From positions 29,788-93,787 of the forward strand of contig CALMMC010000125.1 in NCBI GenBank assembly GCA_937868205.1: DNA of 64,000 nt, read 5' to 3'. Shown here piece after piece: positions 1,569 to 35,700 of this stretch (the first letter of the stretch is position 1; every line of letters begins with the position of its first letter). The notes under the pieces were generated by a model. The model saw only the letters and a program-made list of their open reading frames with translations. It was not told the origin of the DNA and made no database searches. Both the position numbers and the translations under genes were made by a program. The stretch comes from an uncultured bacterium (lineage in GTDB: Bacteria; Acidobacteriota; Aminicenantia; Aminicenantales; UBA4085).

Positions 1569-1808
1569 GTCATCCTCCTTGCCGGTATCCGCCCCGCGGA
1601 CGGGCGGGAATGATTATATCCAAATCGGAGACACATTGCTTATTCCCCAAATGATCACGGTTTACGGCCGGTCAAAACACAAAATCGAAAAAGCGAGGAA
1701 TGAAGCTAAAATGAGGCGAATATGCATGGCCCCACCTGTCTAATTGTTTCATATTAATATAAATACATATTATTGGATTATGCCTTCAAAAATCCGGGTC
1801 GATTCTTC

Positions 1809-2930: not shown

Positions 2931-3299
2931 TCTGATCGGCCGCGATTCCATCCGGGATCGTCGGTTTCCCCTATCCGCGACCTCCCGGCCCCGCTCCATG
3001 TCGATCCGCGGGTAAAAATAGGACGGCGATCGGCATGGAAAGCGCATCGCCTGAGGACGGAACGGATGGCCTTTTGTTTCCGCGAACAGCGGAGAGAGCG
3101 CCGGATGATCGCCAAGGAGGCATCACTGAGCGGACATTAAGGCAAGGCCGGGGAACGGGAAAAGCAATCCTGGCGATCGCCAAGGAGCCGGGCCCGCATC
3201 GGGCGTTGGAAAAGCCGCCTCTTCCGCCGCGGAACCGGGGGGAAGGCGCCGTTGGAAAAGCCGCCGCCGACTCAAGCGCCGCTTTTCCCAGCCTTAACA

Positions 3300-3395
3300 A
3301 ATCGGGAAATGGATAAACAGGTACCGATATGAATCGGGAAATGGATAAACAGGTACCGATATGAATCGGGAAATGGTTGACCAGGTACCGATTGG
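3300..3395. repeat. 32-bp direct tandem repeat, 3 copies (two identical, third degenerate), each with an internal hairpin ATCGG...GGTACCGAT
   Basis: aatcgggaaatggataaacaggtaccgatatg at 3300-3331 and 3332-3363; degenerate copy aatcgggaaatggttgaccaggtaccgattgg at 3364-3395. Sits in the intergenic region between convergent genes. Confidence 0.9.
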
Positions 3396-23137: not shown

Positions 23138-24147
23138 AAAAGGTCCTGGTCGCCGGCGGAGCCGGCTACATCGGCTCCCACACGGTCAAGGAGCTCCGCC
23201 GGGCCGGCTTCAAACCCGTGGTCTTCGACAATCTTTCAAGCGGGCACCGCGACGCGGCCGGCGGGGCCGAGCTCATCGAGGGCGACCTGCGCGATCCGGA
23301 CCTGATCGGGCGCCTGCTCAAGGAGGGCGGTTTCTCGGCCGTTCTCCATTTCGCCTCGCTCATCCAGGTCGGCGAGTCCTTTGTCGATCCCCGCAAATAT
23401 TACGAGCACAACCTCCGGACTTCCCTGAACCTGCTGGGGGCGGCCCTGGACGCCGGCGTCCGGGTGTTCATCTTCAGCTCGAGCGCGGCCGTCTACGGCC
23501 TGCCCCGGGAGACGCCCATCCGCGAGGACCACCCCCTCGACCCGGTCAATCCCTACGGCCGGACCAAGGCGATGATCGAGCAGGTCCTTCGGGATTACGA
23601 CCGGGCCTACGGCCTCAAGCACGTCTCCCTCCGCTACTTCAACGCGGCCGGGGCGGACCCGGACGGGGAGCTCGGCGAGCGCCATCATCCGGAAACGCAC
23701 CTTATCCCCAATGTCCTCCGGGCCGCCGCCGGGGACGGTTCCATCCTCGGCGTCTTCGGGACGGATTTCCCCACGGCCGACGGGACGGCCGTCCGGGATT
23801 ACATTCACGTCACCGACCTGGCCTCGGCCCATGTCCTCGCCCTCCGCCGTCTCCTGGACGGCGGATCGAGCGAGGTCATCAACCTGGGGACAAACCGGGG
23901 ATATTCCGTCCGCGAAGTCATCGCCGCCGCCGAAAAAGCCACCGGGCGGCGCGTTCCCCGGGAAGATCGGCCCCGCCGGGAAGGCGACCCTCCCATTCTT
24001 CTGGCCTCGAAGGAAAAAGCCGAGCGCGTCCTGGGATGGAGGCTTCGCTTTTCCGACCTCGGCACGATTCTCGAGACCGCCTGGGCTTGGCACCTCAAGG
24101 AATCCGGAGAGCGGAAACGTCCGGGCGGCGGCGAAGCCGGTCGCTGA
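23134..24147 (+). CDS. galE: UDP-glucose 4-epimerase
   Basis: 337-aa ORF; GGAGYIGSH NAD-binding motif, YxxxK catalytic motif. ATGA overlap with the upstream gene. Confidence 0.9.
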   Translation: MKKVLVAGGAGYIGSHTVKELRRAGFKPVVFDNLSSGHRDAAGGAELIEGDLRDPDLIGRLLKEGGFSAVLHFASLIQVGESFVDPRKYYEHNLRTSLNLLGAALDAGVRVFIFSSSAAVYGLPRETPIREDHPLDPVNPYGRTKAMIEQVLRDYDRAYGLKHVSLRYFNAAGADPDGELGERHHPETHLIPNVLRAAAGDGSILGVFGTDFPTADGTAVRDYIHVTDLASAHVLALRRLLDGGSSEVINLGTNRGYSVREVIAAAEKATGRRVPREDRPRREGDPPILLASKEKAERVLGWRLRFSDLGTILETAWAWHLKESGERKRPGGGEAGR

Positions 24148-24178
24148 CGGAGAACGCGATCCTCCGGCTCCCTCTTTG

Positions 24179-24207
24179 TTTGACTCCCCTCCGCCCGCGT
24201 GTTATAA
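24179..24207 (+). promoter_or_regulatory. sigma70-type promoter TTGACT-17nt-TATAAA for the mltD-like gene
   Basis: TTGACT at 24179-24184, 17-nt spacer, TATAAA at 24202-24207, ATG at 24223. Confidence 0.45.
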
Positions 24208-24222
24208 AAGTTCATTGATCTC

Positions 24223-25656
24223 ATGAAATCATTGAAATTCCTGCCGATCATCCTCATCCTCGCCGGCTGTCTCTTTCTCGTCGACTGCGCCCGCAATGAG
24301 ACGGCCGTCCGAACGGTTCCGCCGCCGCCGGGCAAGGCGGCCGCCGTCCCTGAAGCGCCGCCGTCCGAAAAAGCGGCGCCCGCTCCGGTCCAAGAGGCGA
24401 CCGGGAAAACGATCATTCCCGTCGAGGAAAAAAACTTGGCTTCCGGCGTCCTTCCGGTCAACGGCCAGGCGGCCGATGACGCCTCGATCACGATCGAGGA
24501 CGTCCTCGAGCTGTACGCCGAAGCCAAGGCCGCCCGGGAACGAGGCGATTTCGAAGGAGCGGTGGCTTACCTGGACGAGGCTTACGCCGCGCTTCTCCGC
24601 CTCCGCATCCCCGCCGATTCGCCCCTGATCCAGGACAAGGACAACCTCCGCCTGCTGATCGCCCAGCGCATCCAGGAAATCAGCGCCGCCCGCCGCAATC
24701 CGGCCGTGGAGAATCACAAATCGATCCCCTTGATCGAGAACGAATGGGTTCTCCGGGAGATTCGGTCCTTCACCGGCCCCGAGCGGACGGCCTTCCTGGA
24801 AGGCTACCGGCGCTCCGGATTTTACAAGGATTGGATCGTCGACGAGCTGCAGAAAGCCGGCCTGCCTTCGGATCTGGTCTGGCTCCCGATCGTTGAAAGC
24901 ATGTACAAACCCCTGGCTCTGTCTTCGGCCCGGGCTCTCGGCATCTGGCAATTCATCCGGACGACCGGCCTGAATTACGGCTTGAACCAGGACAAGTTCA
25001 TCGACGAGCGCCGGGACCCCTATAAGTCGACCTTCGCCGCGATCAAGTACTTGGAACATCTCCACTCGTTTTTCGGCGATTGGACGACCGCCCTGGCCGC
25101 CTACAACTGCGGCGAGGGATATGTCCAGCGGATCATCAATTCGCAGAACATCAGCTACCTGGATAATTTCTGGGATCTTTTCCAGCGCCTTCCCTACCAG
25201 ACGGCCCGGTATGTTCCCCGCTTCATCGCCGTCGTCTTGATCATCCGGGACCCGGAAAAATACGGGGTGAGCCTGCCCGCGTCGTATCCGCCGCTCCGCT
25301 TCGACACGGTCCGGATCCAGCACCCGGCCAAGCTGAGCGTCCTGGCGGCCGCCATGGGCTTGGATTCCTCCGAGCTCGAGTTTCTCAACCCCGAGCTCCG
25401 TTATCAATCCACGCCCGACACGCCGTACGATCTCCGCGTCCCCGTCGGGATGGAGGAGCGTCTCCTGGCCGCGCTGCCCGCTCTGCCGAAATATATTCCG
25501 CCCGAATACGGGACGCACAAGGTGAGGTCGGGGGAAACCCTTTCAACCATCGCCCGCCGGTACGGGACTTCCGTCCAGAACTTGCAGAAAATCAACGGGA
25601 TCCGGGGAACCTTGATCCGCGCCGGACAAGTCCTCCGCATCCCCAGCCGCGGCTGA
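24223..25656 (+). CDS. membrane-bound lytic murein transglycosylase D-like lipoprotein (SLT domain plus C-terminal LysM)
   Basis: 477-aa ORF; lipobox (LAGC), SLT motif AYNCGEG, C-terminal LysM (HKVRSGETLSTIARRYG). Confidence 0.85.
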   Translation: MKSLKFLPIILILAGCLFLVDCARNETAVRTVPPPPGKAAAVPEAPPSEKAAPAPVQEATGKTIIPVEEKNLASGVLPVNGQAADDASITIEDVLELYAEAKAARERGDFEGAVAYLDEAYAALLRLRIPADSPLIQDKDNLRLLIAQRIQEISAARRNPAVENHKSIPLIENEWVLREIRSFTGPERTAFLEGYRRSGFYKDWIVDELQKAGLPSDLVWLPIVESMYKPLALSSARALGIWQFIRTTGLNYGLNQDKFIDERRDPYKSTFAAIKYLEHLHSFFGDWTTALAAYNCGEGYVQRIINSQNISYLDNFWDLFQRLPYQTARYVPRFIAVVLIIRDPEKYGVSLPASYPPLRFDTVRIQHPAKLSVLAAAMGLDSSELEFLNPELRYQSTPDTPYDLRVPVGMEERLLAALPALPKYIPPEYGTHKVRSGETLSTIARRYGTSVQNLQKINGIRGTLIRAGQVLRIPSRG

Positions 25657-25666
25657 AATCGAAAGA

Positions 25667-25752
25667 GGGAGACACAAAGCCTTTTCACCCTGTTTCCCTG
25701 TTTCCCAGAGCCGGATATCAACTGAAATTAGGTGAAGAGGCATTGTGTCTCC
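25667..25752. repeat. ~86-nt palindromic extragenic element, copy A (14-bp terminal inverted repeats GGAGACACAAAGCC / GGCATTGTGTCTCC with a conserved core)
   Basis: Shares GGGAGACAC...TTCACCC..TTTCCCTG...AGCCGGA.AT.CA...GGTG..CATTG..GTGTCTCC with copy B at 28996-29082. Starts 11 nt after the mltD-like stop. Confidence 0.7.
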
Positions 25753-25942
25753 TCATTATAAGAGAGACGCTTCCACATAGAACGGCCGCGATGGATCATG
25801 GCTTTCGAGTGTCAAGAGCGGATCAGCTCGGCGATCGTCAAGAGCAAAACCGATCCGTCCGAAAACCGGGCCAGGCCGTCGATAAACCGCATTGACACCG
25901 GCCGGGGATGAACGTATCATCTTCCCGGCAAGGAAAGGTTCC

Positions 25943-26368
25943 ATGATTCTCAAATACGCCGTACTATGGATTGTTTCTTTCATCGGCGTAAGCGCCGTGG
26001 ACGCCCTCTGGCATCTCGTTCTCTGGGGACGGATCTACCGCCGGGACATCCGCAAGGTCGCCGCGGTCGTCGACGGCAAGCTCGTCCTGAACGGGATCAG
26101 CGGAGCGCTCTCCCAAGTCCTGGTGATCACGGCTTTCGTCGTCCTCGCTTCCCTTCAGCTTTCCTCGGCCGATCCCTATCTCAAAGGAATCCTGGCCTGC
26201 GCGGCCGGCGGCGTTCTCGGGATTTCCGCGTATGGATTGGTGAACCACTGGATCGTCCGGGACTGGAGCCTTTCCCTGACGGTTCTCGAAGTCATTTGGG
26301 GCCCGGTCCTCGGGGCGTTCGCCGGATTTCTCATCGTCGGGACGGCCCGGCTGTTGAAGATCGGCTGA
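25943..26368 (+). CDS. small integral membrane protein (hypothetical)
   Basis: Start chosen at MILKYAVLW (AGGAAAGG SD 4 nt upstream). Three to four predicted TM helices. 141 aa. Confidence 0.45.
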   Translation: MILKYAVLWIVSFIGVSAVDALWHLVLWGRIYRRDIRKVAAVVDGKLVLNGISGALSQVLVITAFVVLASLQLSSADPYLKGILACAAGGVLGISAYGLVNHWIVRDWSLSLTVLEVIWGPVLGAFAGFLIVGTARLLKIG

Positions 26369-26383
26369 TTCGGACGATCGGCG

Positions 26384-28201
26384 ATGTCCACGACATCCCA
26401 GCGGTCAAACGGAAAAAGCTATTATTACGCCTTTCTCGCCGGGACGAAAAAGATCCTGGAAAATCAGAATGAGCTGAACCGGATCAATGTTTTTCCCGTC
26501 CCCGATGCCGACACCGGCTCCAATCTCGCCTCGACCCTCCGGGCCGTCGTCGAGCGAGTCCGTCCGCATCGCTCCTACGGGGCGACCTCCGCGGCGATCG
26601 CGGCGGCCGCCCTGGAGGGCGCCCGGGGCAACTCAGGCGTCATTTTCGCCCAATTTCTTTACGGTCTCGGGGCCGAATCCCGAGACTGGACCGAGGTTTC
26701 GCCGGCCCGCTTCGCCCGCTCCGTCCTGAAAGCGGTCCGCTATATGTACGAAGCGATCGCCGAGCCGGTCGAGGGAACGATGATTACGGTCATCCGCCGG
26801 TGGGCCGAGTATCTCGAATCCCGGGAGAAAGAAGCTGAAAATTTTTTGAAGGTCTTGGCCGATTCCCGCGGCCGGGCGCTCGAAGCCCTCCAGGAAACAC
26901 GACACCGGTTGGCGGCCATGAAGAAAGCCGGCGTCGTCGACGCCGGCTCCAAGGGCGTGGTCCTCTTTCTCGAGGGGGCGATCGATTTCTTGATCAAGCC
27001 CTCGCATAAGAAGATCATCTCGATCCGGGCCGAGGCGATCGAAATCGAACACACCGAAGCGGTCTCGGCCGCCCCCGTCGGCCGGCGCTACTGTGTCGAG
27101 GCCTTGATCCGCCCCCATCCGGGCCGGGAGGCCGCGGGATTGGACCGGGACGCCTTGAGTTCCCTGGTTTCAAAAGCCGGGGACTCCCTGGTGATCGCCG
27201 GATCCAGGGACACCCTCCGCCTCCACGTCCACGCGGACGAGCCTCCGGAAATCTTTTACGCGATCCGCGATTTCGGGCTCTGCGTCCATCAGAAAGCCGA
27301 TGACATGCAGCGGCAATACGAAACGGTCCACCGCCGGAAGAGAAACGTCGCCCTGGTCACGGATTCCAGCTGCGATCTTCCCGGCCTCCTTCTCGACCAT
27401 CATCAGGTCCATGTGATTCCGCTCCGCCTGAATTTCGGCCCTTGTTCCTATCTCGACAAGACGACAATCTCCCCCGACCGCTTCTACACGATGTTGGACG
27501 AAGACCGCGGATTTCCCACGTCGGCCCAACCTAACGCCAAGGCGTTCGAGGACATGTACGCCCGGCTGGCCGCCCATTATGATTCGATCCTCTCCATCCA
27601 CCTGTCCGGGAAACTGAGCGGGACGTACGCCGGCGCCGCCTCGGTTGCCGAGCGGGTTTCGCGGAAGACGGGGAAAAAAATCACCGTCATTGATTCCCGG
27701 ACGCTGTCCGGCGCCCTCGGCTTGGTGGTTCTCCGGACAGCCCGGGCCCTTGAGGCGGGCGCCTCCCACGAAGAGGCCGCGGCCGAAGCCGAACGGGTCA
27801 GGCCGAGGTCGAGAATCCTGGTGGGCGTGCGGACCCTGAAATACATGGTCCGCGGCGGCCGGGTCAGCCCGATGGCCGGCCGATTGGCGAACCTGTTGAA
27901 CCTGAAACCGGTCGTGTCCATGAAGGAAAACGGCGAGTCAACCGTTTCCGACAAGGCGTTCAGCCGCCGGGGCAACCTCAAAAACATCCGCCGGCAGGCG
28001 AGAAAGGCCGCGGCCGGAAGCCGGGTTTGGGAATCCTGCGTCCTTCACGCCCACAACCCGGAGGAAGCCGGGATTTATGCCCTTGAGATGGAAGAGATCT
28101 TCGGCCGGAAGCCGGCCTATCTCATGGATATTTCGCCCGTGATCGGCCTGAACGCGGGCGTGGGGGCCGTGGCCGTCTCGTTCCTGATGGAAGAGGCGTG
28201 A
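26384..28201 (+). CDS. DAK2-domain / DegV-domain fusion protein (FakA-like N-terminus fused to a FakB/DegV-like fatty-acid-binding domain)
   Basis: 605-aa ORF. The N-terminal PVPDADTGSN is a Dak2/DhaL motif. The C-terminal ~290 aa has DegV hallmarks (VALVTDSSCDLP, SIHLSGKLSGTY, VIDSRTLSGALG). Confidence 0.75.
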   Translation: MSTTSQRSNGKSYYYAFLAGTKKILENQNELNRINVFPVPDADTGSNLASTLRAVVERVRPHRSYGATSAAIAAAALEGARGNSGVIFAQFLYGLGAESRDWTEVSPARFARSVLKAVRYMYEAIAEPVEGTMITVIRRWAEYLESREKEAENFLKVLADSRGRALEALQETRHRLAAMKKAGVVDAGSKGVVLFLEGAIDFLIKPSHKKIISIRAEAIEIEHTEAVSAAPVGRRYCVEALIRPHPGREAAGLDRDALSSLVSKAGDSLVIAGSRDTLRLHVHADEPPEIFYAIRDFGLCVHQKADDMQRQYETVHRRKRNVALVTDSSCDLPGLLLDHHQVHVIPLRLNFGPCSYLDKTTISPDRFYTMLDEDRGFPTSAQPNAKAFEDMYARLAAHYDSILSIHLSGKLSGTYAGAASVAERVSRKTGKKITVIDSRTLSGALGLVVLRTARALEAGASHEEAAAEAERVRPRSRILVGVRTLKYMVRGGRVSPMAGRLANLLNLKPVVSMKENGESTVSDKAFSRRGNLKNIRRQARKAAAGSRVWESCVLHAHNPEEAGIYALEMEEIFGRKPAYLMDISPVIGLNAGVGAVAVSFLMEEA

Positions 28202-28223
28202 GCCGCCGGAAGGGAAGGCTTCG

Positions 28224-28994
28224 GTGATCGGACCGCTTTTGACCGCGGCGGGGATCGTGTTCCTCTACATGACCGGGCTCTGCGTCCTGGCCCTGGTCCG
28301 GAAGAATTATTCCATCGTCGACGCCGGCTGGGGACCCGGCTTCGTCCTGGCGGCCGCGGCCTTGTTCCTCCGAGATCCGGATTTTTCTCCGGCCCGTCTC
28401 CTCATGACCGCTCTGATCACGCTCTGGGCCGCCCGCTTGAGCTTCCACATTCTTCGGAGAAACGCCGGAAAGCCGGAGGACTTCCGCTACGCCGCCATGA
28501 GGAAACGGTGGGGCAAAGCCGCCCCGCTGAAGTCGTACATTTTCATCTTCCTCTTCCAAGGGGCGGTGATGCTCCTCGTCTCCTCCCCCCTGACGGCCGT
28601 CTTCCTCTCCCCGGCCAGGCCGCTCTCCATCCTCGACGCCGCCGGAACGGCGGTCTTTCTGGCCGGGTTTCTTTTCGAGACCGTCGCCGACCGCCAGCTC
28701 GCCGCCCACATCCGCGACTCGGGAAACAAAAAGATGCTCATGACCCGAGGTCTCTGGTCGCTTTCCCGTCACCCGAACCATTTCGGGGAAGCGACTCTGT
28801 GGTGGGGTTTGGGCCTGATCGCCCTGTCTTCAAGATATGGCTGGGCCGGGCTCATCGGCCCGGCCGTCATCACCTTCTTCCTCCGGTTCGTTTCCGGCGT
28901 GCCGCTCCTGGAGAAAAAGTATGCCGGTCGGCCGGACTGGGAGGAGTATAAAAAGAAGACGCCCGTCTTTTTCCCGCGCTTGCCCGGGGCGTGA
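28224..28994 (+). CDS. DUF1295 / ICMT-like membrane methyltransferase-reductase family protein
   Basis: 256-aa ORF; GTG start with GGGAAGG SD; multi-TM; LSRHPNHFGE...WWG motif. Confidence 0.65.
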   Translation: MIGPLLTAAGIVFLYMTGLCVLALVRKNYSIVDAGWGPGFVLAAAALFLRDPDFSPARLLMTALITLWAARLSFHILRRNAGKPEDFRYAAMRKRWGKAAPLKSYIFIFLFQGAVMLLVSSPLTAVFLSPARPLSILDAAGTAVFLAGFLFETVADRQLAAHIRDSGNKKMLMTRGLWSLSRHPNHFGEATLWWGLGLIALSSRYGWAGLIGPAVITFFLRFVSGVPLLEKKYAGRPDWEEYKKKTPVFFPRLPGA

Positions 28995-28995
28995 C

Positions 28996-29082
28996 AATCG
29001 GGAGACACCATCCCCATTCACCCGATTTCCCTGAGCCGGAAATTCACAAAAACAGGGTGCATTGGGATGGTGTCTCCCGATT
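28996..29082. repeat. ~87-nt palindromic extragenic element, copy B (20-bp perfect terminal inverted repeats AATCGGGAGACACCATCCCA / TGGGATGGTGTCTCCCGATT)
   Basis: Starts 2 nt after the DUF1295 stop, between convergent genes. Its core aligns with copy A. Confidence 0.75.
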
Positions 29083-29136
29083 GCCTCCGTATTGGCGGCC
29101 GCCCCGAAGAGGAGAACGGCGTCTTCGAACCCCTCT

Positions 29137-30075
29137 TCAACCGGACAGGCGGCCGCCCTCCGCCGGATGGATATGGACATACACCTTGCGAAGCATCTCC
29201 ACGTCCTCTCGCAATCGCGTCTCGGCGGCCGTGGCGATTTCGTCCGCCTCGCCGACGCGGAGGGCGCTGTTCACCCGGATGATGATATTGGCCACGAGGT
29301 AGGGTCCGAAGCGATGAGCCCGAATGTCCTCGATGCTGACGACGCCCGGAACGTCCCGCAGGGAGGCCGCGAACCGCTCCTTCATCTCCTCGCTCGGGAG
29401 GGTGTTCATCAGCTCGTCGGCCGACTCCAGGAGAATGGAAAATCCGGTTTTGGCCACGATCACCGCGACCGCCGCCCCGGCGATCGGATCGGCCCAGGGA
29501 TGCCCGGAAAGGGAAAGGAGAATGCCGGCTCCCACGCCGAGAGAGGCGAGAACGTCGTTGCGATGGTCCCGGGCGATGGCCTTCACGGCGAGGCTGTCGG
29601 TCACCCGCCCGGCGCGACGGGCTTGGAACATCAAAAAAAGCTTGGCGGCCACCGTGCCGGCGGCCGTCCACAACGTGAAAGAGGCGATGGCCGCGGGCGT
29701 CTCCTTTCCTTTGATCAAATCGAAAAGGGAATCGACGGCGTCCCAAAAAATCGCCAGGCCGCTCGTGACGACGAAGGCGCCGACCACGAGAGCGGCGATC
29801 GTTTCGTATTGATGATGGCCGTAGGGATGTTCGCGGTCGGCCGGCTTGCCCGACATCCCGACGAAGAATTTGACCACCAGGAAGTAGACGACGTCTGAGA
29901 CGGAATTGATCCCGTCGGCCAGGAGGGCCTTGCTGTGGCCGAGGATTCCCAAGCCGAGCTTGGCCGCGGCCAGGACGGCGTTTCCGGCCAAGCCGAGGTT
30001 GACGACGAGCCGGATCATGCGCCGTTGCTTCACCCGGCCGTCCGGCGGGCGCGGGACACCGTCCGCCGGCTTCAT
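29137..30075 (-). CDS. cation diffusion facilitator (CDF) family metal efflux transporter
   Basis: 312-aa ORF; six-TM domain with an HSKALLADGINSVSD motif, C-terminal cytoplasmic domain. ATGA overlap with the upstream methyltransferase. Confidence 0.9.
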   Translation of the reverse strand: MKPADGVPRPPDGRVKQRRMIRLVVNLGLAGNAVLAAAKLGLGILGHSKALLADGINSVSDVVYFLVVKFFVGMSGKPADREHPYGHHQYETIAALVVGAFVVTSGLAIFWDAVDSLFDLIKGKETPAAIASFTLWTAAGTVAAKLFLMFQARRAGRVTDSLAVKAIARDHRNDVLASLGVGAGILLSLSGHPWADPIAGAAVAVIVAKTGFSILLESADELMNTLPSEEMKERFAASLRDVPGVVSIEDIRAHRFGPYLVANIIIRVNSALRVGEADEIATAAETRLREDVEMLRKVYVHIHPAEGGRLSG

Positions 30076-30836
30076 TCCGTCCTCCGGGCCACGAAAAATT
30101 CATAGCCGAGCTCGGTCGAGCATTTTTCAAAGCCTTCGATTTCGGCCTGAGCCGCGTCGAGGACCTCCCGGGCGGCGGCCTTGTCTCGGCATGTCTCCCG
30201 CAATTCGCGGATGCGGGCCCGCATGGGGCCGTAATACGAATCGATCCAGGAGGAGGCCGGCAGGGTGAAATGGCCGTCCACCTCGTACCCGCACGCCTCG
30301 AACAGGGCGAGGTTGTCCTTGACATCCTTCATGTCCGCGTAGTCCCAGGCCCATTTCACGGCCTCGTCCGACCGGTCGTCCGTCAGCCAGACCAGCTCGG
30401 TCAGGCCGATCGAGCCGCCCGCTTTCAACAAGGGCCGGCAAGCCCGAAGTCCCTCGGCGAAGCCCATTTGGTAGAGGGCGCCCTCGGACCAGATCACATC
30501 GAACGTCCCGGGGGCGAAATCCATCGTCTTCATATCCTGGAGGACGGTCTTGATGCGCGCCGAAAGACCGAGCGCCCGGGCATCGGCCTCGACCCTCTCC
30601 AAGAACGGCCGGTGGTTGTCCAAGGCAATGATTCGTCCGCCGGAAATCCGGGCCAGGACCAGGGTTTGTTTTCCCGGGCCGCAGCCGATGTCCAGAATCA
30701 TCGGTTTTTCCGGAACGCCGTTCATCATCCGGAAGGCTTTTTCCGTCGAGGCGTCGTCGCCCGGGCCGGCCCGGGGGAGGGCTCCATAGACCTCGAAAAA
30801 ATAAGCCGTTTTGTCTTCCATCGGCTTATCATACAT
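30072..30836 (-). CDS. class I SAM-dependent methyltransferase
   Basis: 254-aa ORF; motif I ILDIGCGPG; GGAGG SD. Confidence 0.85.
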   Translation of the reverse strand: MYDKPMEDKTAYFFEVYGALPRAGPGDDASTEKAFRMMNGVPEKPMILDIGCGPGKQTLVLARISGGRIIALDNHRPFLERVEADARALGLSARIKTVLQDMKTMDFAPGTFDVIWSEGALYQMGFAEGLRACRPLLKAGGSIGLTELVWLTDDRSDEAVKWAWDYADMKDVKDNLALFEACGYEVDGHFTLPASSWIDSYYGPMRARIRELRETCRDKAAAREVLDAAQAEIEGFEKCSTELGYEFFVARRTE

Positions 30837-31020
30837 TATTTGGCGCCTCCGGCCATCATCCGGGCCCGCCGCGGTCCCCAGGGTCAGCCCCCTTCTCGGG
30901 CTTTTGCAGGATCGACGGACGCCGCATCTCGCGACGGCTCAAGCTGATCCATTCCTCCAAGTCCGCCTCCATCCCGAAGGGGACATTTTCGCTTTGCTAT
31001 CACATGCCCGCCGCCGTTCA

Positions 31021-31049
31021 TTGTCCGGACCGTTCCGATATGGTAAAAT
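31021..31049 (+). promoter_or_regulatory. candidate extended -10 promoter (TTGTCC-17-TAAAAT with upstream TG; TGgTAAAAT) for the ALDH / giant-protein operon
   Basis: tatggtaaaat at 31039-31049 in an AT-rich patch, about 175 nt upstream of the ATG at 31232. The leader ends in the inverted repeat TCCGGAA...TTCCGGA spanning the start codon. Confidence 0.35.
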
Positions 31050-31231
31050 ATTGTCTTCTATTTCATCTCATCGTCCTCGCCGGGGGATGATCCGGGAGAA
31101 GAAATCCCGTGGAACGCGTGTCGGTCTCTTGTTCTCGCCCTGTCTCCGGCGCAGCCTGTCGCCTCGGATCAGCCCCGGCCGATTTAACCGCTCTTTTCGT
31201 CCGGAAAGAGGACATTCCCCGTGAATTCCGG

Positions 31232-32791
31232 ATGGAGAAACCGATCGAGCCGGACCGGGTGTTCCTGGGCGGCGATCTGCAACCCTGGAAAGGGCGCCGT
31301 CTTGACGTCTACTCCCCCATCGATGTCCGAACCCAGGAGGGATTTTCCCCCCTGCGGCTGGGCTCCCTTCCCCGGATGACGGGCCGCGACGCCCTCCGCG
31401 CCCTGGCCGCCGCCCGGAAGGCTTTTTGCGGCGGACGCGGGGCTTGGCCCTCCCTGACTCTCGCCGGCCGCATCCGCCGCCTCGAGGACTTCAGCGCCCG
31501 GCTGGCCGGCCTCAAGGAGCCGGTCGTCCGGACATTAATGTGGGAAATCGCCAAACCCCGGGTCGAGCTCGAGGCCGAGTTCGACCGGACGATCGAATTG
31601 ATCGGCCGATTGATTCAAGCCGCGGTCAAACGGGACCGGGCCTCGCGGTCCCTGATCCGGCAAAAGGGCATCATCGGCCTCGTCTGCGACGAGCCGCGGG
31701 GCGTCGCCCTGTGCGCCGGGCCGTATAATTATCCTCTGTTCGAGACGTTTGGGCTCGTTGTGCCCGCCCTCCTGGCCGGCAACACGGTGATCATCAAGCC
31801 TCCCCGCTTCGGCGTCTTGTTTTTCGATTTCCTTCTCGAGCCTCTCGCGTCCTGCTTCCCTCCGGGCACGGTCCACGTCCTTTCGGGAGACGGGCCGGCC
31901 GTTCTCGATCCCCTCTTGAAAATCGGCGGGATCGACGTCTTCGCCTTCATCGGTTCCAAGGCGGTGGCCGACCGGCTGACCAGCCTGCATCCGAAGCGGA
32001 CGCGCCTGCGGGTCCTCCTCGGCCTGGGCGCCAAGAACGCGGCCGTGATCCTGCCCGACGCCGACCTGGAGACGGCCGTCGGCGAGTGCCTGCTGGGCGC
32101 CCTGGCCTTCAACGGCCAACGCTGCGCGGCCCTGAAGATTCTCTTCGTCCACGAGGCGGTCCGGAAGCCGTTCCTCGACCGCCTTGCTGCGGAAACGGCC
32201 AAAATCAGAATCGGCATGCCCTGGGCGAAAGGCGTCCGCATCACCCCCCTGGCCGACCCTGTCCGGATGTCCTATCTCCGGTCGCTCATCGACGACGCCG
32301 CCGGCCGCGGGGCGGACGTCATCAACGAAAACGGCGGCCGGTCCGCGGGCTCGCTCCTCTGTCCCGCCGTCCTTCAACCGGTCACGCCCCGGATGCGGAT
32401 CTATCGCGAGGAGCAGTTCGGGCCGCTCGTTCCGATCGTCGATTTCCGCCGGATGGAGGAGCCGGTCGACTACCTCCGGGCGTCCTCCTTCGGTCAACAG
32501 GCGAGCGTCTTCGGGACCGACGTCCGGACGCTCGGTCCGCTCATCGACGCCGCCCGCGCCCAGGTCGCCCGGGTCAACCTCAACGCCAAGTGCCAACGCG
32601 GGCCGGATGTCTTTCCCTTCACCGGGAAGAAAGATTCGGCCCGGGGGGATTTCTCGGTTTCGGAAATTTTTGGATTCTTCGCCGACCGGACCGTCGTCGC
32701 CGCCAGGGACGACGGCCGAGGGGCGGCCCTCCTCAAGCGGTATCGGGCGGTCTCCGGGCGGAGCGGATCCGGAGAAAGGATCGTCTCATGA
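31232..32791 (+). CDS. aldehyde dehydrogenase family protein, GapN-like (non-phosphorylating glyceraldehyde-3-phosphate dehydrogenase-like)
   Basis: 519-aa ORF from the ATG at 31232 (an in-frame GTG at 31109 with a GGGAGA SD is an alternative start). Catalytic-Cys region ALAFNGQRCAALK and C-terminal CQRGPDVFPFTGKKDSARG resemble GapN. Its stop overlaps the next start (ATGA). Confidence 0.8.
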   Translation: MEKPIEPDRVFLGGDLQPWKGRRLDVYSPIDVRTQEGFSPLRLGSLPRMTGRDALRALAAARKAFCGGRGAWPSLTLAGRIRRLEDFSARLAGLKEPVVRTLMWEIAKPRVELEAEFDRTIELIGRLIQAAVKRDRASRSLIRQKGIIGLVCDEPRGVALCAGPYNYPLFETFGLVVPALLAGNTVIIKPPRFGVLFFDFLLEPLASCFPPGTVHVLSGDGPAVLDPLLKIGGIDVFAFIGSKAVADRLTSLHPKRTRLRVLLGLGAKNAAVILPDADLETAVGECLLGALAFNGQRCAALKILFVHEAVRKPFLDRLAAETAKIRIGMPWAKGVRITPLADPVRMSYLRSLIDDAAGRGADVINENGGRSAGSLLCPAVLQPVTPRMRIYREEQFGPLVPIVDFRRMEEPVDYLRASSFGQQASVFGTDVRTLGPLIDAARAQVARVNLNAKCQRGPDVFPFTGKKDSARGDFSVSEIFGFFADRTVVAARDDGRGAALLKRYRAVSGRSGSGERIVS

Positions 32792-35700
32792 GCCCGACGA
32801 ACGCCCATTCCCTCCGGACGGGCGGGTCCGACCCCGTTCTCCCCCCTCCGGCCCGGACGCTGATCGAGCTGGTCCGGGAATCCTACGGAACGCACCTCCG
32901 CATCCGCAATTTTTTGGAGGATTACCACCGGACCGGGCGGAAAGAGGCCGCCCGGGCCGAGGACTGGCGGCGGATCAGCCTCGAGGATTTTCACGTTTTC
33001 GACGCCCATCCCCGGGGGCGGGAAGCCCATGAAATCGTCGTCGACCTGTTTTTCGAGATGATCGAGCCGTCGCAAGAAGAGGACGTCCGGGAGAAAAGCC
33101 TCGCCGGGTTGTTCGAGTATCTCCGCAAGATCATGAACGACAGCGGGCCGAACCTCGACCGCAATCTTCCCCTCGTCGACCGGGCTTTCAACCGGGTTCT
33201 TTCCGCCGTTCCGGACGGAGACGGCCTCCTGAAAAAGTCGGCCCGGGACATGAAGCTGATCCTGGGAACCTGCCTCGAGAGGAACCTTCCCCTTTCGCAC
33301 GGAGCGTATCAAAGCTTGGCCGGCCGGGCGTTCCGGTCGTCCTTCGATTACTGGCTCGCCCAACCCGATCCGGAGGAAGGATTCATTCCCTTCAAGGCCG
33401 AGGACGGAGACGGAGCGGACCGGGATCTTTATTTGAGCCTGGTCGAGCCGCTGAGCCGGAAACGGCTCCGGGAATGGAAAAGCCTGGTCGACGCCTGCGA
33501 CGGCGGCTCGGAGCCCGGCGACTGGGCCGGGTTTTCCGGCCTCCTCGAATGGCCGGATTACTACCAAATCGCCAAGGGGTATTTGAAAATCGCCGACGAA
33601 ATCGAGAAAGCGTCCTTCTCGGACGGCCGCCGGCACGAAATCCGACTCCTGTACCTTTTCCGGATCATTTCCGTCCCCGGATTCCGGGACATCCACCGCG
33701 AAGCCCTGATCGAGATCAACCGTTCCCTGGGCCGGGTGTTCGCCGGTCTTCCTCCCGACAAGCGGGAGCCGATGATCTCCCTGCTGTTCCAGACGTTCCG
33801 GGAGAGCGCCGCCCGGGCCGCGTATCCCGACACCATGATGAGCTGCCTCAGCACGGCGGCCCGGGAAGTCTTCAAGCTCGACCGCCATCCCGAGGTCAAG
33901 GTCCTGCTCGACGAGATCATCCGGTTCGGTTTCGTCGGCCCCGGCATCCGCGGGGCGACCACCGACTGGGAAGTGAAATTCAACCCTCTCCACGTCAAGA
34001 ACATCCGGGCCTGGATCGAAATCATCGCCCTCAAGCCCCGCTGGACCAAGCCTCTGCTGTCGGCCTTGATCGCCCATCTGAAAATCGGCGGGGTCTTCGT
34101 CCGCGACGCCGACCTCCTCCAGAAGGACATTTCCGCCCTTCTCAACGCCGACATCACCCCGGCCCACAACCTGGTTCTTCAATTGGCCCGCCTCTTCCCG
34201 GTGTATTTCAACGACATCAACGCCGGCGGCGAGCTCCGGGATAATACGACCCGCCTGGACGCCCTCTGCTTTCGGGAGGATCCGCTCATCCACTTCATCC
34301 GGAAACAGACTCACGTGGAGTGCAACAGCACGCTTGTCCCCTTCTGCGAAGCCGTCCTGGAATATTGGGCGGCGGGCCGAAAGGAAGGAATGAAGCCGTT
34401 CCTCCCGGCGGAGATCTACGACGCGCTCCAGCCCTCCGGGCCATTCTACGACGGCCTTCACCGGGTGATGGCCGGAGTGTCGCGGGAGGCCGGCGGCGAT
34501 CTCCGGGAAACGCTCGCCTGGGACCAGATGAAAATCCTCAAAACCGTCCGGGAAATCCCGGACGTTCCCGAGCCGGACAAGGAGAAGGCGGCCCTGTTCC
34601 TCCGTCTCTATCAGCTCCTCCACCGCAAGTATTTCGTCCAGCATCAGGACGTCCTCAAGGATCTCGACGCCTCCTTCTTGTTCGACCGCCGGAAAATCGA
34701 CATTTTGAAGCGGGCCTTGGCCCGGCAAACGCCCGGCCCGGCCCTGGCGGTTCTCCTGGAATTCCTCGAGATCCTGAAGGACCGCTTCCTCTCCCCCAAA
34801 AAGACCGAGGCGCTGGAGGATCTCTACGAAAAGCGGCACATCGCCGTCGGGATCCCGTCCGTCTACGGCACCTACCGCGAGGAGAAATTCGACGCCCTCC
34901 GTCTCTACCTCAAGCTCCAAAGCCTGGCCGACGTCCAGCTCGAGCACGCCCTCGCCCCGGTGAATCTCCGCTTCATCACCCGGAGCACGCTGGTCGAAAT
35001 CCACCGCTTCCTCGTGATCTTTCTGAAGGTCCTCGCCTTGGAGGGGATCGCGACCGAGGGCCTGACGTCCAAGGTCCGTCTCCTCGAAGGAGCCCTCAAG
35101 GCTCCGCGGTTCAGCATGGCCCAATACACCGACATCTTCCAATTCATCTCCAAGGGCGTCCAAGACGTCATCCACGTTTATTTCATCGACGCCCACCGGG
35201 CCCGACTGCCGCTCGTCATCCGTCAGGTCCTGGCCGCTCTCCCCCAAGAGGAACGCCCCAGTCCGGACAAGGAAGAGGAGGAGATCTACATCCGGACCGA
35301 AAACTTCATCCGCTCGCTGATCGCCTCGTCCTTCGGCCTGCAGACGATCGACAATTTCGTCAGCACCATCCTCCGGACGCTCTGCGCCGAGGAGGAGAAA
35401 TTCAAGGACCAAGCGCATCTCCGCAACGTCCTGATGAGCTACGATCCCGGGGCCGCCGTCGTCCCGATCGGGGAAAAAATGGGTCCCCGGGACGACCAAA
35501 TCCTCCTCGGAAACAAGGGATATTTCCTGAAAAAATTGCACTCCTTCGGATTTCCCGTCCCCCCGGGATTCATCCTGACGACGGAAGTCTTCCGCTGCAA
35601 AGAAGCCATCCGGAGCGACCGGAACATCGGCCGGGACCTCGACCAGCGCATCGACCGGCAATTAAGAATTCTCGAACAGACCGCCCGCAAGAAGCTGGGG

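Follow-up and report, generated by a model that had tools for sequence, protein, structure and literature searches.

Two look-alike palindromes, here called copies A and B, lie behind genes in the window, by which we mean the whole 64-kb stretch of DNA analysed. Are they structured RNAs that act at gene ends, or mobile DNA that has landed there? The initial annotation kept both options, proposing either a dispersed REP/MITE-like element or a protein-binding structured RNA.

Two palindromes behind stop codons

The features concerned are given with window positions, strand and the evidence for each.

1622-1652, plus strand: putative solo arm in degenerate form, AAATCGGAGACACATTGCTTATTCCCC, left out of the copy count (nhmmer E 0.05; covariance model E 4.9; fold z +1.08)
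24223-25656, plus strand: gene upstream of A, mltD-like lytic transglycosylase with LysM (SLT + LysM; ORF, and Pfam on identical genes in loci L001-L006)
25657-25757, no strand assigned: full extent of copy A, A/T-rich outer flanks included (AATCGAAAGAG ... TCATT; sequence, fold, covariance-model match at 25660-25760)
25667-25698, plus strand: 5′ arm of A, GGGAGACACAAAGCCTTTTCACCCTGTTTCCC, a diverged version of the family arm GGGAGACACAATACCTATTTCCCTATTTCC (family alignment, covariance-model alignment)
25699-25723, plus strand: centre of A, with the 8-nt tandem duplication TGTTTCCC, the subfamily apical loop AGAGCC, then GGATAT and CAACT (pairwise alignment with B and with the L031 orthologue)
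25724-25752, plus strand: 3′ arm of A, GAAATTAGGTGAAGAGGCATTGTGTCTCC (fold, family alignment, covariance model)
25892-25920, plus strand: sigma-70-like promoter TTGACA-17-TATCAT, 11/12 (consensus match; the TTGACA...TATCAT block is kept in relatives L017 and L019)
28224-28994, plus strand: gene upstream of B, DUF1295 (ORF, Pfam)
28995-29083, no strand assigned: copy B, whole palindrome CAATCGGGAGACAC ... GTGTCTCCCGATTG (inverted repeat I4 with 34-nt arms, 88% complementary; fold; covariance-model match at 28993-29085)
29000-29031, plus strand: 5′ arm of B, GGGAGACACCATCCCCATTCACCCGATTTCCC (sequence, family alignment, covariance model)
29032-29054, plus strand: centre of B, with the apical loop TGAGCC, GGAAATT closing the apical stem, and a 10-nt 3′ bulge, CACAAAAACA (fold, sequence)
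29055-29078, plus strand: 3′ arm of B, GGGTGCATTGGGATGGTGTCTCCC (sequence, fold)
29137-30075, minus strand: cation-efflux gene, convergent to the DUF1295 gene (ORF, Pfam)

A and B align with 78% column identity, the 8-nt tandem duplication being confined to A, and their flanks are unrelated to each other. Within the 64 kb, GGGAGACAC occurs three times, every time in A or B (0.45 expected from shuffles), and TTCACCCNNTTTCCCTG occurs in A and B only. As RNA, both copies fold into long hairpins far stabler than shuffles, at −43.1 kcal/mol (z −6.8) for A, whose core hairpin is 25667-25752, and −54.7 kcal/mol (z −7.5) for B. When they are folded as DNA, z is −5.3 and −6.7, respectively. The predicted stems have ~29 pairs in B and, with a single mismatch, ~22 in A, so that the long hairpin first described holds but its length, given as inverted repeats of 14-20 bp, does not. 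What had been read as a conserved internal loop of ~50 nt is predicted to be mostly paired inner arm, topped by a short apical hairpin, TTTCC-C(T/A)GAGCC-GGA(A/T)A.

A covariance model built from non-window family members only (R1) finds A at E 7.5e-11 and B at E 1e-9, both at full length and on both strands. R1 finds nothing else significant in the window, which gives a count of two copies in 64 kb. A third candidate in the 1619-1745 region was rejected, because its R1 match at 1619-1741 has E 4.9 and it folds no better than shuffles (z +1.08). The likeness of the two sites, noticed at the outset, is thus borne out by their identity, their stable hairpins and the R1 matches at E ~1e-10.

Both copies start just past a plus-strand stop codon, as also first described. 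The mltD-like gene has its stop codon at 25654-25656, and GGGAGACAC of A begins 10 nt on; the DUF1295 gene has its stop codon at 28992-28994, and palindrome B (CAATCGGGAGACAC...) starts 1 nt later. The promoter at 25892-25920 is followed by an operon of DUF2177, Dak2/DegV and DUF1295 genes. Copy A therefore sits in the interval from the end of one gene to the promoter that follows, and copy B is placed between two converging stop codons. Same-species strains contribute 11 loci with identical A and B, save one SNP in B, and assemblies from sewage and digesters, among them GCA_035340915.1 and GCA_029558755.1, encode identical proteins.

Two other observations were made in the window. A match to the Guanidine-II (mini-ykkC) riboswitch model at 26315-26350, inside the end of the DUF2177 ORF, stays below the gathering score of 32 at 17.6 bits (E 2.6) and is probably due to chance. 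A 32-nt unit, AATCGGGAAATGGATAAACAGGTACCGATATG, is repeated three times head to tail at intergenic positions 3299-3395, the third copy being diverged, and a lone copy, 72% identical, is found at 19-50. The unit has ATCGG...CCGAT ends, and its motif AATCGGGAAATGG resembles AATAGGGAAATAGG of the palindromic family.

A dispersed family in Aminicenantes

The first four known copies have GGAGACAC, CCCNNTTTC and GTGTCYCC in common. A two-gap pattern built on these three blocks (~22.5 specified bases) matched 55 loci in JGI metagenomes, where ~3 are expected by chance. The family consensus is AAATAG-GGAGACACAATACCTATTTCCCTATTTC-(15-40 nt, variable, G+C-richer)-GAAATAGGGAAATAGGTATTGTGTCTCC-CTATTT. The unit is an inverted pair of 30-36-nt arms (AAATAG GGAGACAC AATACC TATTTCC CTATTTC) around the variable spacer, and AATACC/GGTATT is nearly invariant in the arms although it was absent from the search pattern. 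Across 53 aligned copies, the arms are nearly invariant and the spacers are unalignable. The elements are 73-98 nt long and have 35-47% GC versus ~63% GC in their genomes, and the consensus element folds as DNA at −35.9 kcal/mol (z −13.9). In 361 kb of family-ascertained related contigs, R1 gave 133 strand matches, that is, ~67 sites. The initial annotation had allowed that only these two copies might exist and that their fold might not covary; the search in relatives that it suggested returned dozens of copies, 55 loci by pattern and ~67 sites by R1, and their arms covary (see below).

Named homologues of the flanking proteins belong to Candidatus Aminicenantes or Aminicenantales, and the MurB adjoining a consensus copy has named relatives only there. 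Rfam, which had also been proposed as a check, was run at gathering and permissive thresholds and has no family for the window, A, B or 20 consensus-bearing loci, giving only sub-threshold miRNA-like hairpin matches in A, B and the 20 loci. Literature searches on the arm sequence and on palindromic repeats of Aminicenantes returned nothing relevant. Plasmids, phages and viral contigs yielded no true family match, and a lone viral-contig match without a hairpin was rejected as chance. The A/B spacer pattern TTCACCCNNTTTCCCN{1,12}GAGCCGGA matched 10 times in GTDB representative genomes, all in unrelated organisms; since none of the 10 has a hairpin, all were taken to be chance. On this sequence evidence, the repeats are a previously undescribed palindromic family of ~85 bases, scattered in uncultivated Aminicenantes genomes, and A and B are old, sequence-diverged members of it.

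When paired elements and solo arms were counted with an arm HMM, there were 64 and 10, respectively, in loci ascertained with a pattern requiring both arms. Arms that occur alone are either truncated or duplicated, or belong to collapsed elements. Tandem 3′ arms occur in L040 and L074, tandem elements with decayed partners in L053, and collapsed mini-palindromes retaining the outer stem alone at L055:2531 and L063:1815. A single arm can form a weak 9-bp A/T-rich stem (AAATAGGGA/CCCTATTT) of −5.4 kcal/mol (z −2.9; 3/200 shuffles as good). The spacers fall into subfamilies whose members reappear at separate loci, inside a single contig and in either orientation. One such spacer, GGGAGTGCNGGGGTGGGCAG, is found in L036 (twice), L051, L053 (three times) and L060. 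The A/B spacer is one such subfamily, found otherwise only in their own orthologues, L031/L064.

The region orthologous to the window was taken from four relatives (L017-L020) via the Dak2/DegV protein. Three of them (L017, L019 and L020; 74-77% identity) have zero copies in 56 kb. L018, with an 81% identical DegV-Dak2 protein, has two copies, one between galE and mltD and the other between a pair of minus-strand genes. The A site of L018 lacks a copy, and the contig stops short of the B site. Thus, the elements are dispersed, not conserved in place. The differing sites in close relatives and the recurrence of spacer subfamilies at different loci together indicate that whole elements, arms plus spacer, are copied. 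By flank BLAST, neither a clean empty site nor an excision polymorphism was found, but orthologous filled sites and synteny breaks instead. With >50 distinct copies that are non-syntenic in close relatives and extragenic by stop codons, the dispersed REP/MITE-like option has prevailed.

Some locus pairs deserve separate description. Orthologous sites with ~87-92% identical flanks are both filled in L042:858-941 and L067:3833-3916, and likewise in L028:55-152 and L076:314-397. Their arms are near-identical and their spacers unalignable by eye, reflecting either spacer turnover much faster than that of the arms or in-place copy replacement. At L071:300-1280, two family copies bracket a gene for a 231-aa secreted protein, whereas the related L032:260-355 has a single copy without the gene; this ~1-kb indel bounded by elements suggests recombination at the copies or cassette-like gain between them. 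When L053:3594-3678 is compared with L055:7503-7590, or L039 with L040, the left flanks match at 92-100% identity as far as the element, beyond which the right flanks are unrelated, so the repeat coincides with either synteny breakpoints or assembly joins.

Hairpin maintenance and position at gene ends

Across 53 copies, 87% of the arm cells are paired, and double-sided changes occur in 13 of the 29 arm pairs. The covariation score is 0.112, compared with 0.065 in shuffles (0/500 reach 0.112) and 0.04-0.05 with slid partners. Orthologous alleles in L031, whose flanking genes are 97-100% identical, differ by four compensatory double changes in A and two in B (24-bp stems), where a rough estimate for positions changing independently, at the divergence of the local intergenic DNA, is well under one. 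Covariation, which the initial annotation had named as a check on the fold, is therefore present both in the score and in these six compensatory doubles.

Although the genes are near-identical, A and B differ from the L031 alleles at 15-20 positions. The idea that the elements are hypervariable was rejected, because the window and L031 have diverged just as much in the intergenic region at 30.8-31.0 kb, which contains no element; element hypermutability was therefore dropped, and the compensatory pattern stands. Between window positions 24100-34600 and L031 (ERZ795058 NODE_1183), divergence is a mosaic. Coding DNA is free of mismatches over many kb and includes some patches of 200-300 nt with 5-7% divergence; all three larger intergenic regions are 12-20% divergent with indels.

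A further case is found at L037:5123-5206, where a long A/T-rich hairpin (GGTGCCAGAAAACTCAATC.../...GATTGAGTTATCTGGCACC) lies directly past a stop codon whose orthologues in L060 and L051 are followed by consensus copies. This hairpin has ~60% identity to the family arm by eye and an R1 match with E 2.7e-6. The hairpin is shown to be kept by compensatory change in A, B and L037:5123 while the inner-arm sequence drifts.

Gene contexts were assigned with a crude ORF-based caller. The copies are extragenic and lie in A/T-rich sequence, and of those with both neighbours called (n = 40), 16 are in convergent, 16 in tandem and 8 in divergent contexts. Convergent contexts are enriched, as they hold 40% of the elements versus 20% of all intergenic gaps in the same loci, the other gaps being 58% tandem and 22% divergent. 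The distance to the facing stop codon has a median of 6 nt and is ≤7 nt in 24 of 43 copies, and in several copies the stop codon falls within the A/T-rich outer end of the element. Lying immediately after a stop codon, as was first noted for A, is therefore a trait of the family.

Comparable elements, proposed movement and competing readings

REPINs are REP doublets that form a hairpin and carry compensatory changes (PMC3116915), and their derivatives include singlets, tandem clusters and collapsed palindromes, as described by Bertels and Rainey (PMC3116915). REPINs and the REP (PU, BIME) sequences of Pseudomonas and Enterobacteria are mobilised by RAYT (Y1/HUH) transposases (PMC3116915, PMC3337134). 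The Aminicenantes family is alike in having two conserved inverted units of ~20-35 nt and a less conserved spacer, which are predicted to make one long hairpin in ssDNA or mRNA, and in its compensatory changes. Its doublets also far outnumber singlets, with singlets, tandem clusters and collapsed long palindromes all represented, and it is extragenic, often just 3′ of genes. On the other hand, it has no sequence similarity to REPINs and no 5′ GTAG, each of its arms is only weakly palindromic and A/T-rich, and its hosts are Aminicenantes (Acidobacteriota-related), not Proteobacteria. Classical gammaproteobacterial REPs have GTAG at the 5′ end of each REP; in the present family GTAG is absent from the ends, which read AAAT(A)G followed by GGAGACAC. 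REPs number tens to hundreds per genome, all of them extragenic, and their cognate RAYT is a single-copy gene with the repeats on its flanks. A further difference is that no RAYT/Y1 homologue was found when the six-frame ORFs of ~600 kb of scattered contigs, a small part of many genomes, were searched by phmmer with E. coli RayT (best E 0.93).

Other small elements compare as follows. Of the MITE criteria, the family has terminal inverted repeats (30-36 nt), a total length of 73-98 nt and no coding capacity. Correia elements (CREE/NEMIS) of Neisseria are likewise dispersed palindromes, of ~100-150 bp with terminal inverted repeats of ~26 bp, which lie near genes, are co-transcribed and form hairpins; Correia hairpins affect mRNA processing and termination. 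They differ in having a TA duplication, an internal IHF site and promoter elements, whereas our family has no detectable duplication and a variable interior. ERIC/IRU and other enterobacterial palindromes are similarly imperfect, ~70-130 bp long and located in transcribed intergenic regions, but the core of ERIC is conserved, whereas the Aminicenantes elements have conserved ends and a variable centre. The family is filed as REPIN/MITE-like, not as an established REPIN.

How the elements may move was approached through their junctions and neighbours. Target-site duplication was examined at offsets 0-8 and lengths 2-8 in 55 copies, and none was significant (best 20 versus 13.5 expected; null maximum 20); a palindromic 2-nt target duplication may still be present. 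The loci, plasmids, phages and viral contigs were also searched for a parent insertion sequence sharing the ends of the family, and none turned up. An rve-like IS in L081 and an ISL3-like gene in L074 were considered as parents and rejected for their unrelated ends. The former, at L081:240-1775 on the contig of L031, encodes a 414-aa protein with a faint rve match, lies between galE and mltD in that lineage only, and has repeated GCCAT(A/T)TAAAAACCTTACC motifs at its ends, unrelated to the palindromic family. Clustering of the flanking ORFs gave housekeeping orthologues only, and genes bracketed by two elements are ordinary.

As neither a target duplication nor a parent IS was found, the elements would move as single-stranded hairpins, in a REPIN-like way. 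Whole elements (arms plus spacer) have been copied to new extragenic sites by an enzyme that would act in trans, the mobile form presumably being a single-stranded hairpin, as for REPINs with HUH/Y1 transposases. The copies lie in A/T-rich sequence at or a few nt from stop codons, with an excess in convergent gaps. Once inserted they persist, with compensatory change preserving the hairpin. In the transcript, each copy would form a long 3′ hairpin right behind the stop codon, probably a 3′-end barrier or terminator-like structure, and this hairpin may have a damping effect on translation termination in the gene ahead of it, like that described for E. coli REPs. The mobilising enzyme and a terminator or mRNA-stabilising role are what we infer. 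Overall, it is quite probable that A and B belong to a dispersed family of 73-98-nt palindromes, REPIN-like or very short MITEs, that are mobilised in trans and persist by compensatory change.

A stricter MITE reading holds that the elements are internally deleted derivatives of a DDE IS, with ends of ~30 nt corresponding to the arms, moved by cut-and-paste with a short duplication such as TA or AT within an AAAT|ATTT target. The long conserved terminal inverted repeats and the variable interior suit this reading, and the A/T-rich palindromic flanks (AAWWN...NWWTT) could mask a TA/AT duplication. Moreover, the lineage carries a MITE-like insertion with a clear duplication. This 356-bp insertion, L017:9581-9936, is missing at the orthologous L019 site, has ACGGCAT on both flanks and has the terminal inverted repeats GATCTGGTTCAG...GGTGACACTCCC / GGAGGGTGTCACC...CTGAACCAG; it has the look of an independent classical MITE with target duplication. 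Against strict MITEs, however, stand the non-significant 2-8-nt duplication result and the lack of a parent with these ends in the sources searched, and solo and tandem arms together with arm-level compensatory change suit REP-type elements better. We regard strict MITEs as rather unlikely. Because REP-like arrangements accompany the lack of duplication, the REPIN-like single-strand route is favoured over DDE cut-and-paste.

The hairpins may instead be 3′-end RNA structures selected by the host, serving as terminators, exonuclease barriers or translation-termination regulators, with the module recruited repeatedly and mobility secondary. Tight stop-codon adjacency and convergent-gap enrichment fit this well, as do the location of copy A, precisely in the interval from a gene end to the promoter that follows, and the pairing preserved by compensatory changes in orthologues. 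The same gene end, too, has either a consensus copy (L060/L051) or a diverged hairpin (L037:5123-5206). Compensatory evolution with strict stop adjacency could mean that the hairpins are kept for host function and are not selfish DNA.

The resemblance to a Rho-independent bidirectional terminator extends to the location at gene ends and in convergent gaps and to the flanks, as AAATAG upstream and CTATTT downstream of the consensus resemble an A-tract plus U-tract. Canonical terminator-like sites are at chance level (24 versus 22.9 in shuffles) in the 20 kb scanned, a result in favour of host selection. The family stem, however, is much longer (~30 bp) and A/T-rich inside, and its sequence is common to unrelated loci. 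The sequences just downstream of A (TCATTATAAG) and B (CGATTGCCTC) contain no U-tract, and consensus copies carry just TATTT downstream. A and B are therefore not canonical intrinsic terminators, and the terminator scan reports neither of them.

If RNA on the sense strand of the upstream gene were selected, G.U pairs should exceed A.C mismatches, but there is no such excess (26 versus 29), and strand-specific RNA selection was rejected on this count. One loop/spacer type also points either way with respect to the gene in front of it (L055 versus L051/L060). Both results argue against a strand-specific RNA signal and fit a DNA-level or strand-symmetric constraint, with which a generic 3′ hairpin role may be compatible. 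The initial argument for a protein-binding structured RNA, that its loop is conserved, is unsupported for the same reasons and because the arms are conserved and the spacer variable, the A/B loop is a subfamily signature, and Rfam has no match. Host selection is further weakened by the ~20% of copies in divergent or 5′ contexts, by close relatives without the element at the same gene ends, and by solo, tandem and truncated arms, which are unexpected for a selected module. We consider it unlikely as the primary explanation.

That A and B are a local duplication, or a chance likeness of unrelated terminator hairpins, might be argued from their spacing of only 3.3 kb and a spacer subtype unseen elsewhere in GTDB representative genomes, but is highly improbable and was refuted by the 55 loci of the pattern scan, the ~67 R1 sites and the independent R1 matches to both copies (E ~1e-10), the flanks of A and B being unrelated and dozens of related copies existing elsewhere.

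The palindromes behind the two genes are, then, small mobile DNA of a familiar kind rather than a new RNA regulator, and the family opens no new class of mechanism. There is a small chance of something more particular: an Aminicenantes-specific REPIN-like replicator, possibly with a non-RAYT enzyme, outside the Proteobacteria, for which REPIN-RAYT systems are best documented. Its copies would have been domesticated next to stop codons as terminators or as 3′-end and translation-termination regulators and would be kept over long times by compensation or by hairpin-templated correction as their sequence drifts. A consensus and a usable covariance model are now available for this repeat, which is met again and again in assemblies of a widespread uncultivated lineage (digesters, sewage, sediments). 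Such repeats can supply ORF stop codons and mark synteny changes, as in L053 versus L055 and L032 versus L071. With young consensus copies beside old compensated ones, in a setting where canonical terminator-like sites are at chance level over the scanned 20 kb, the family is a natural experiment on selfish palindromes recruited as 3′-end structure.
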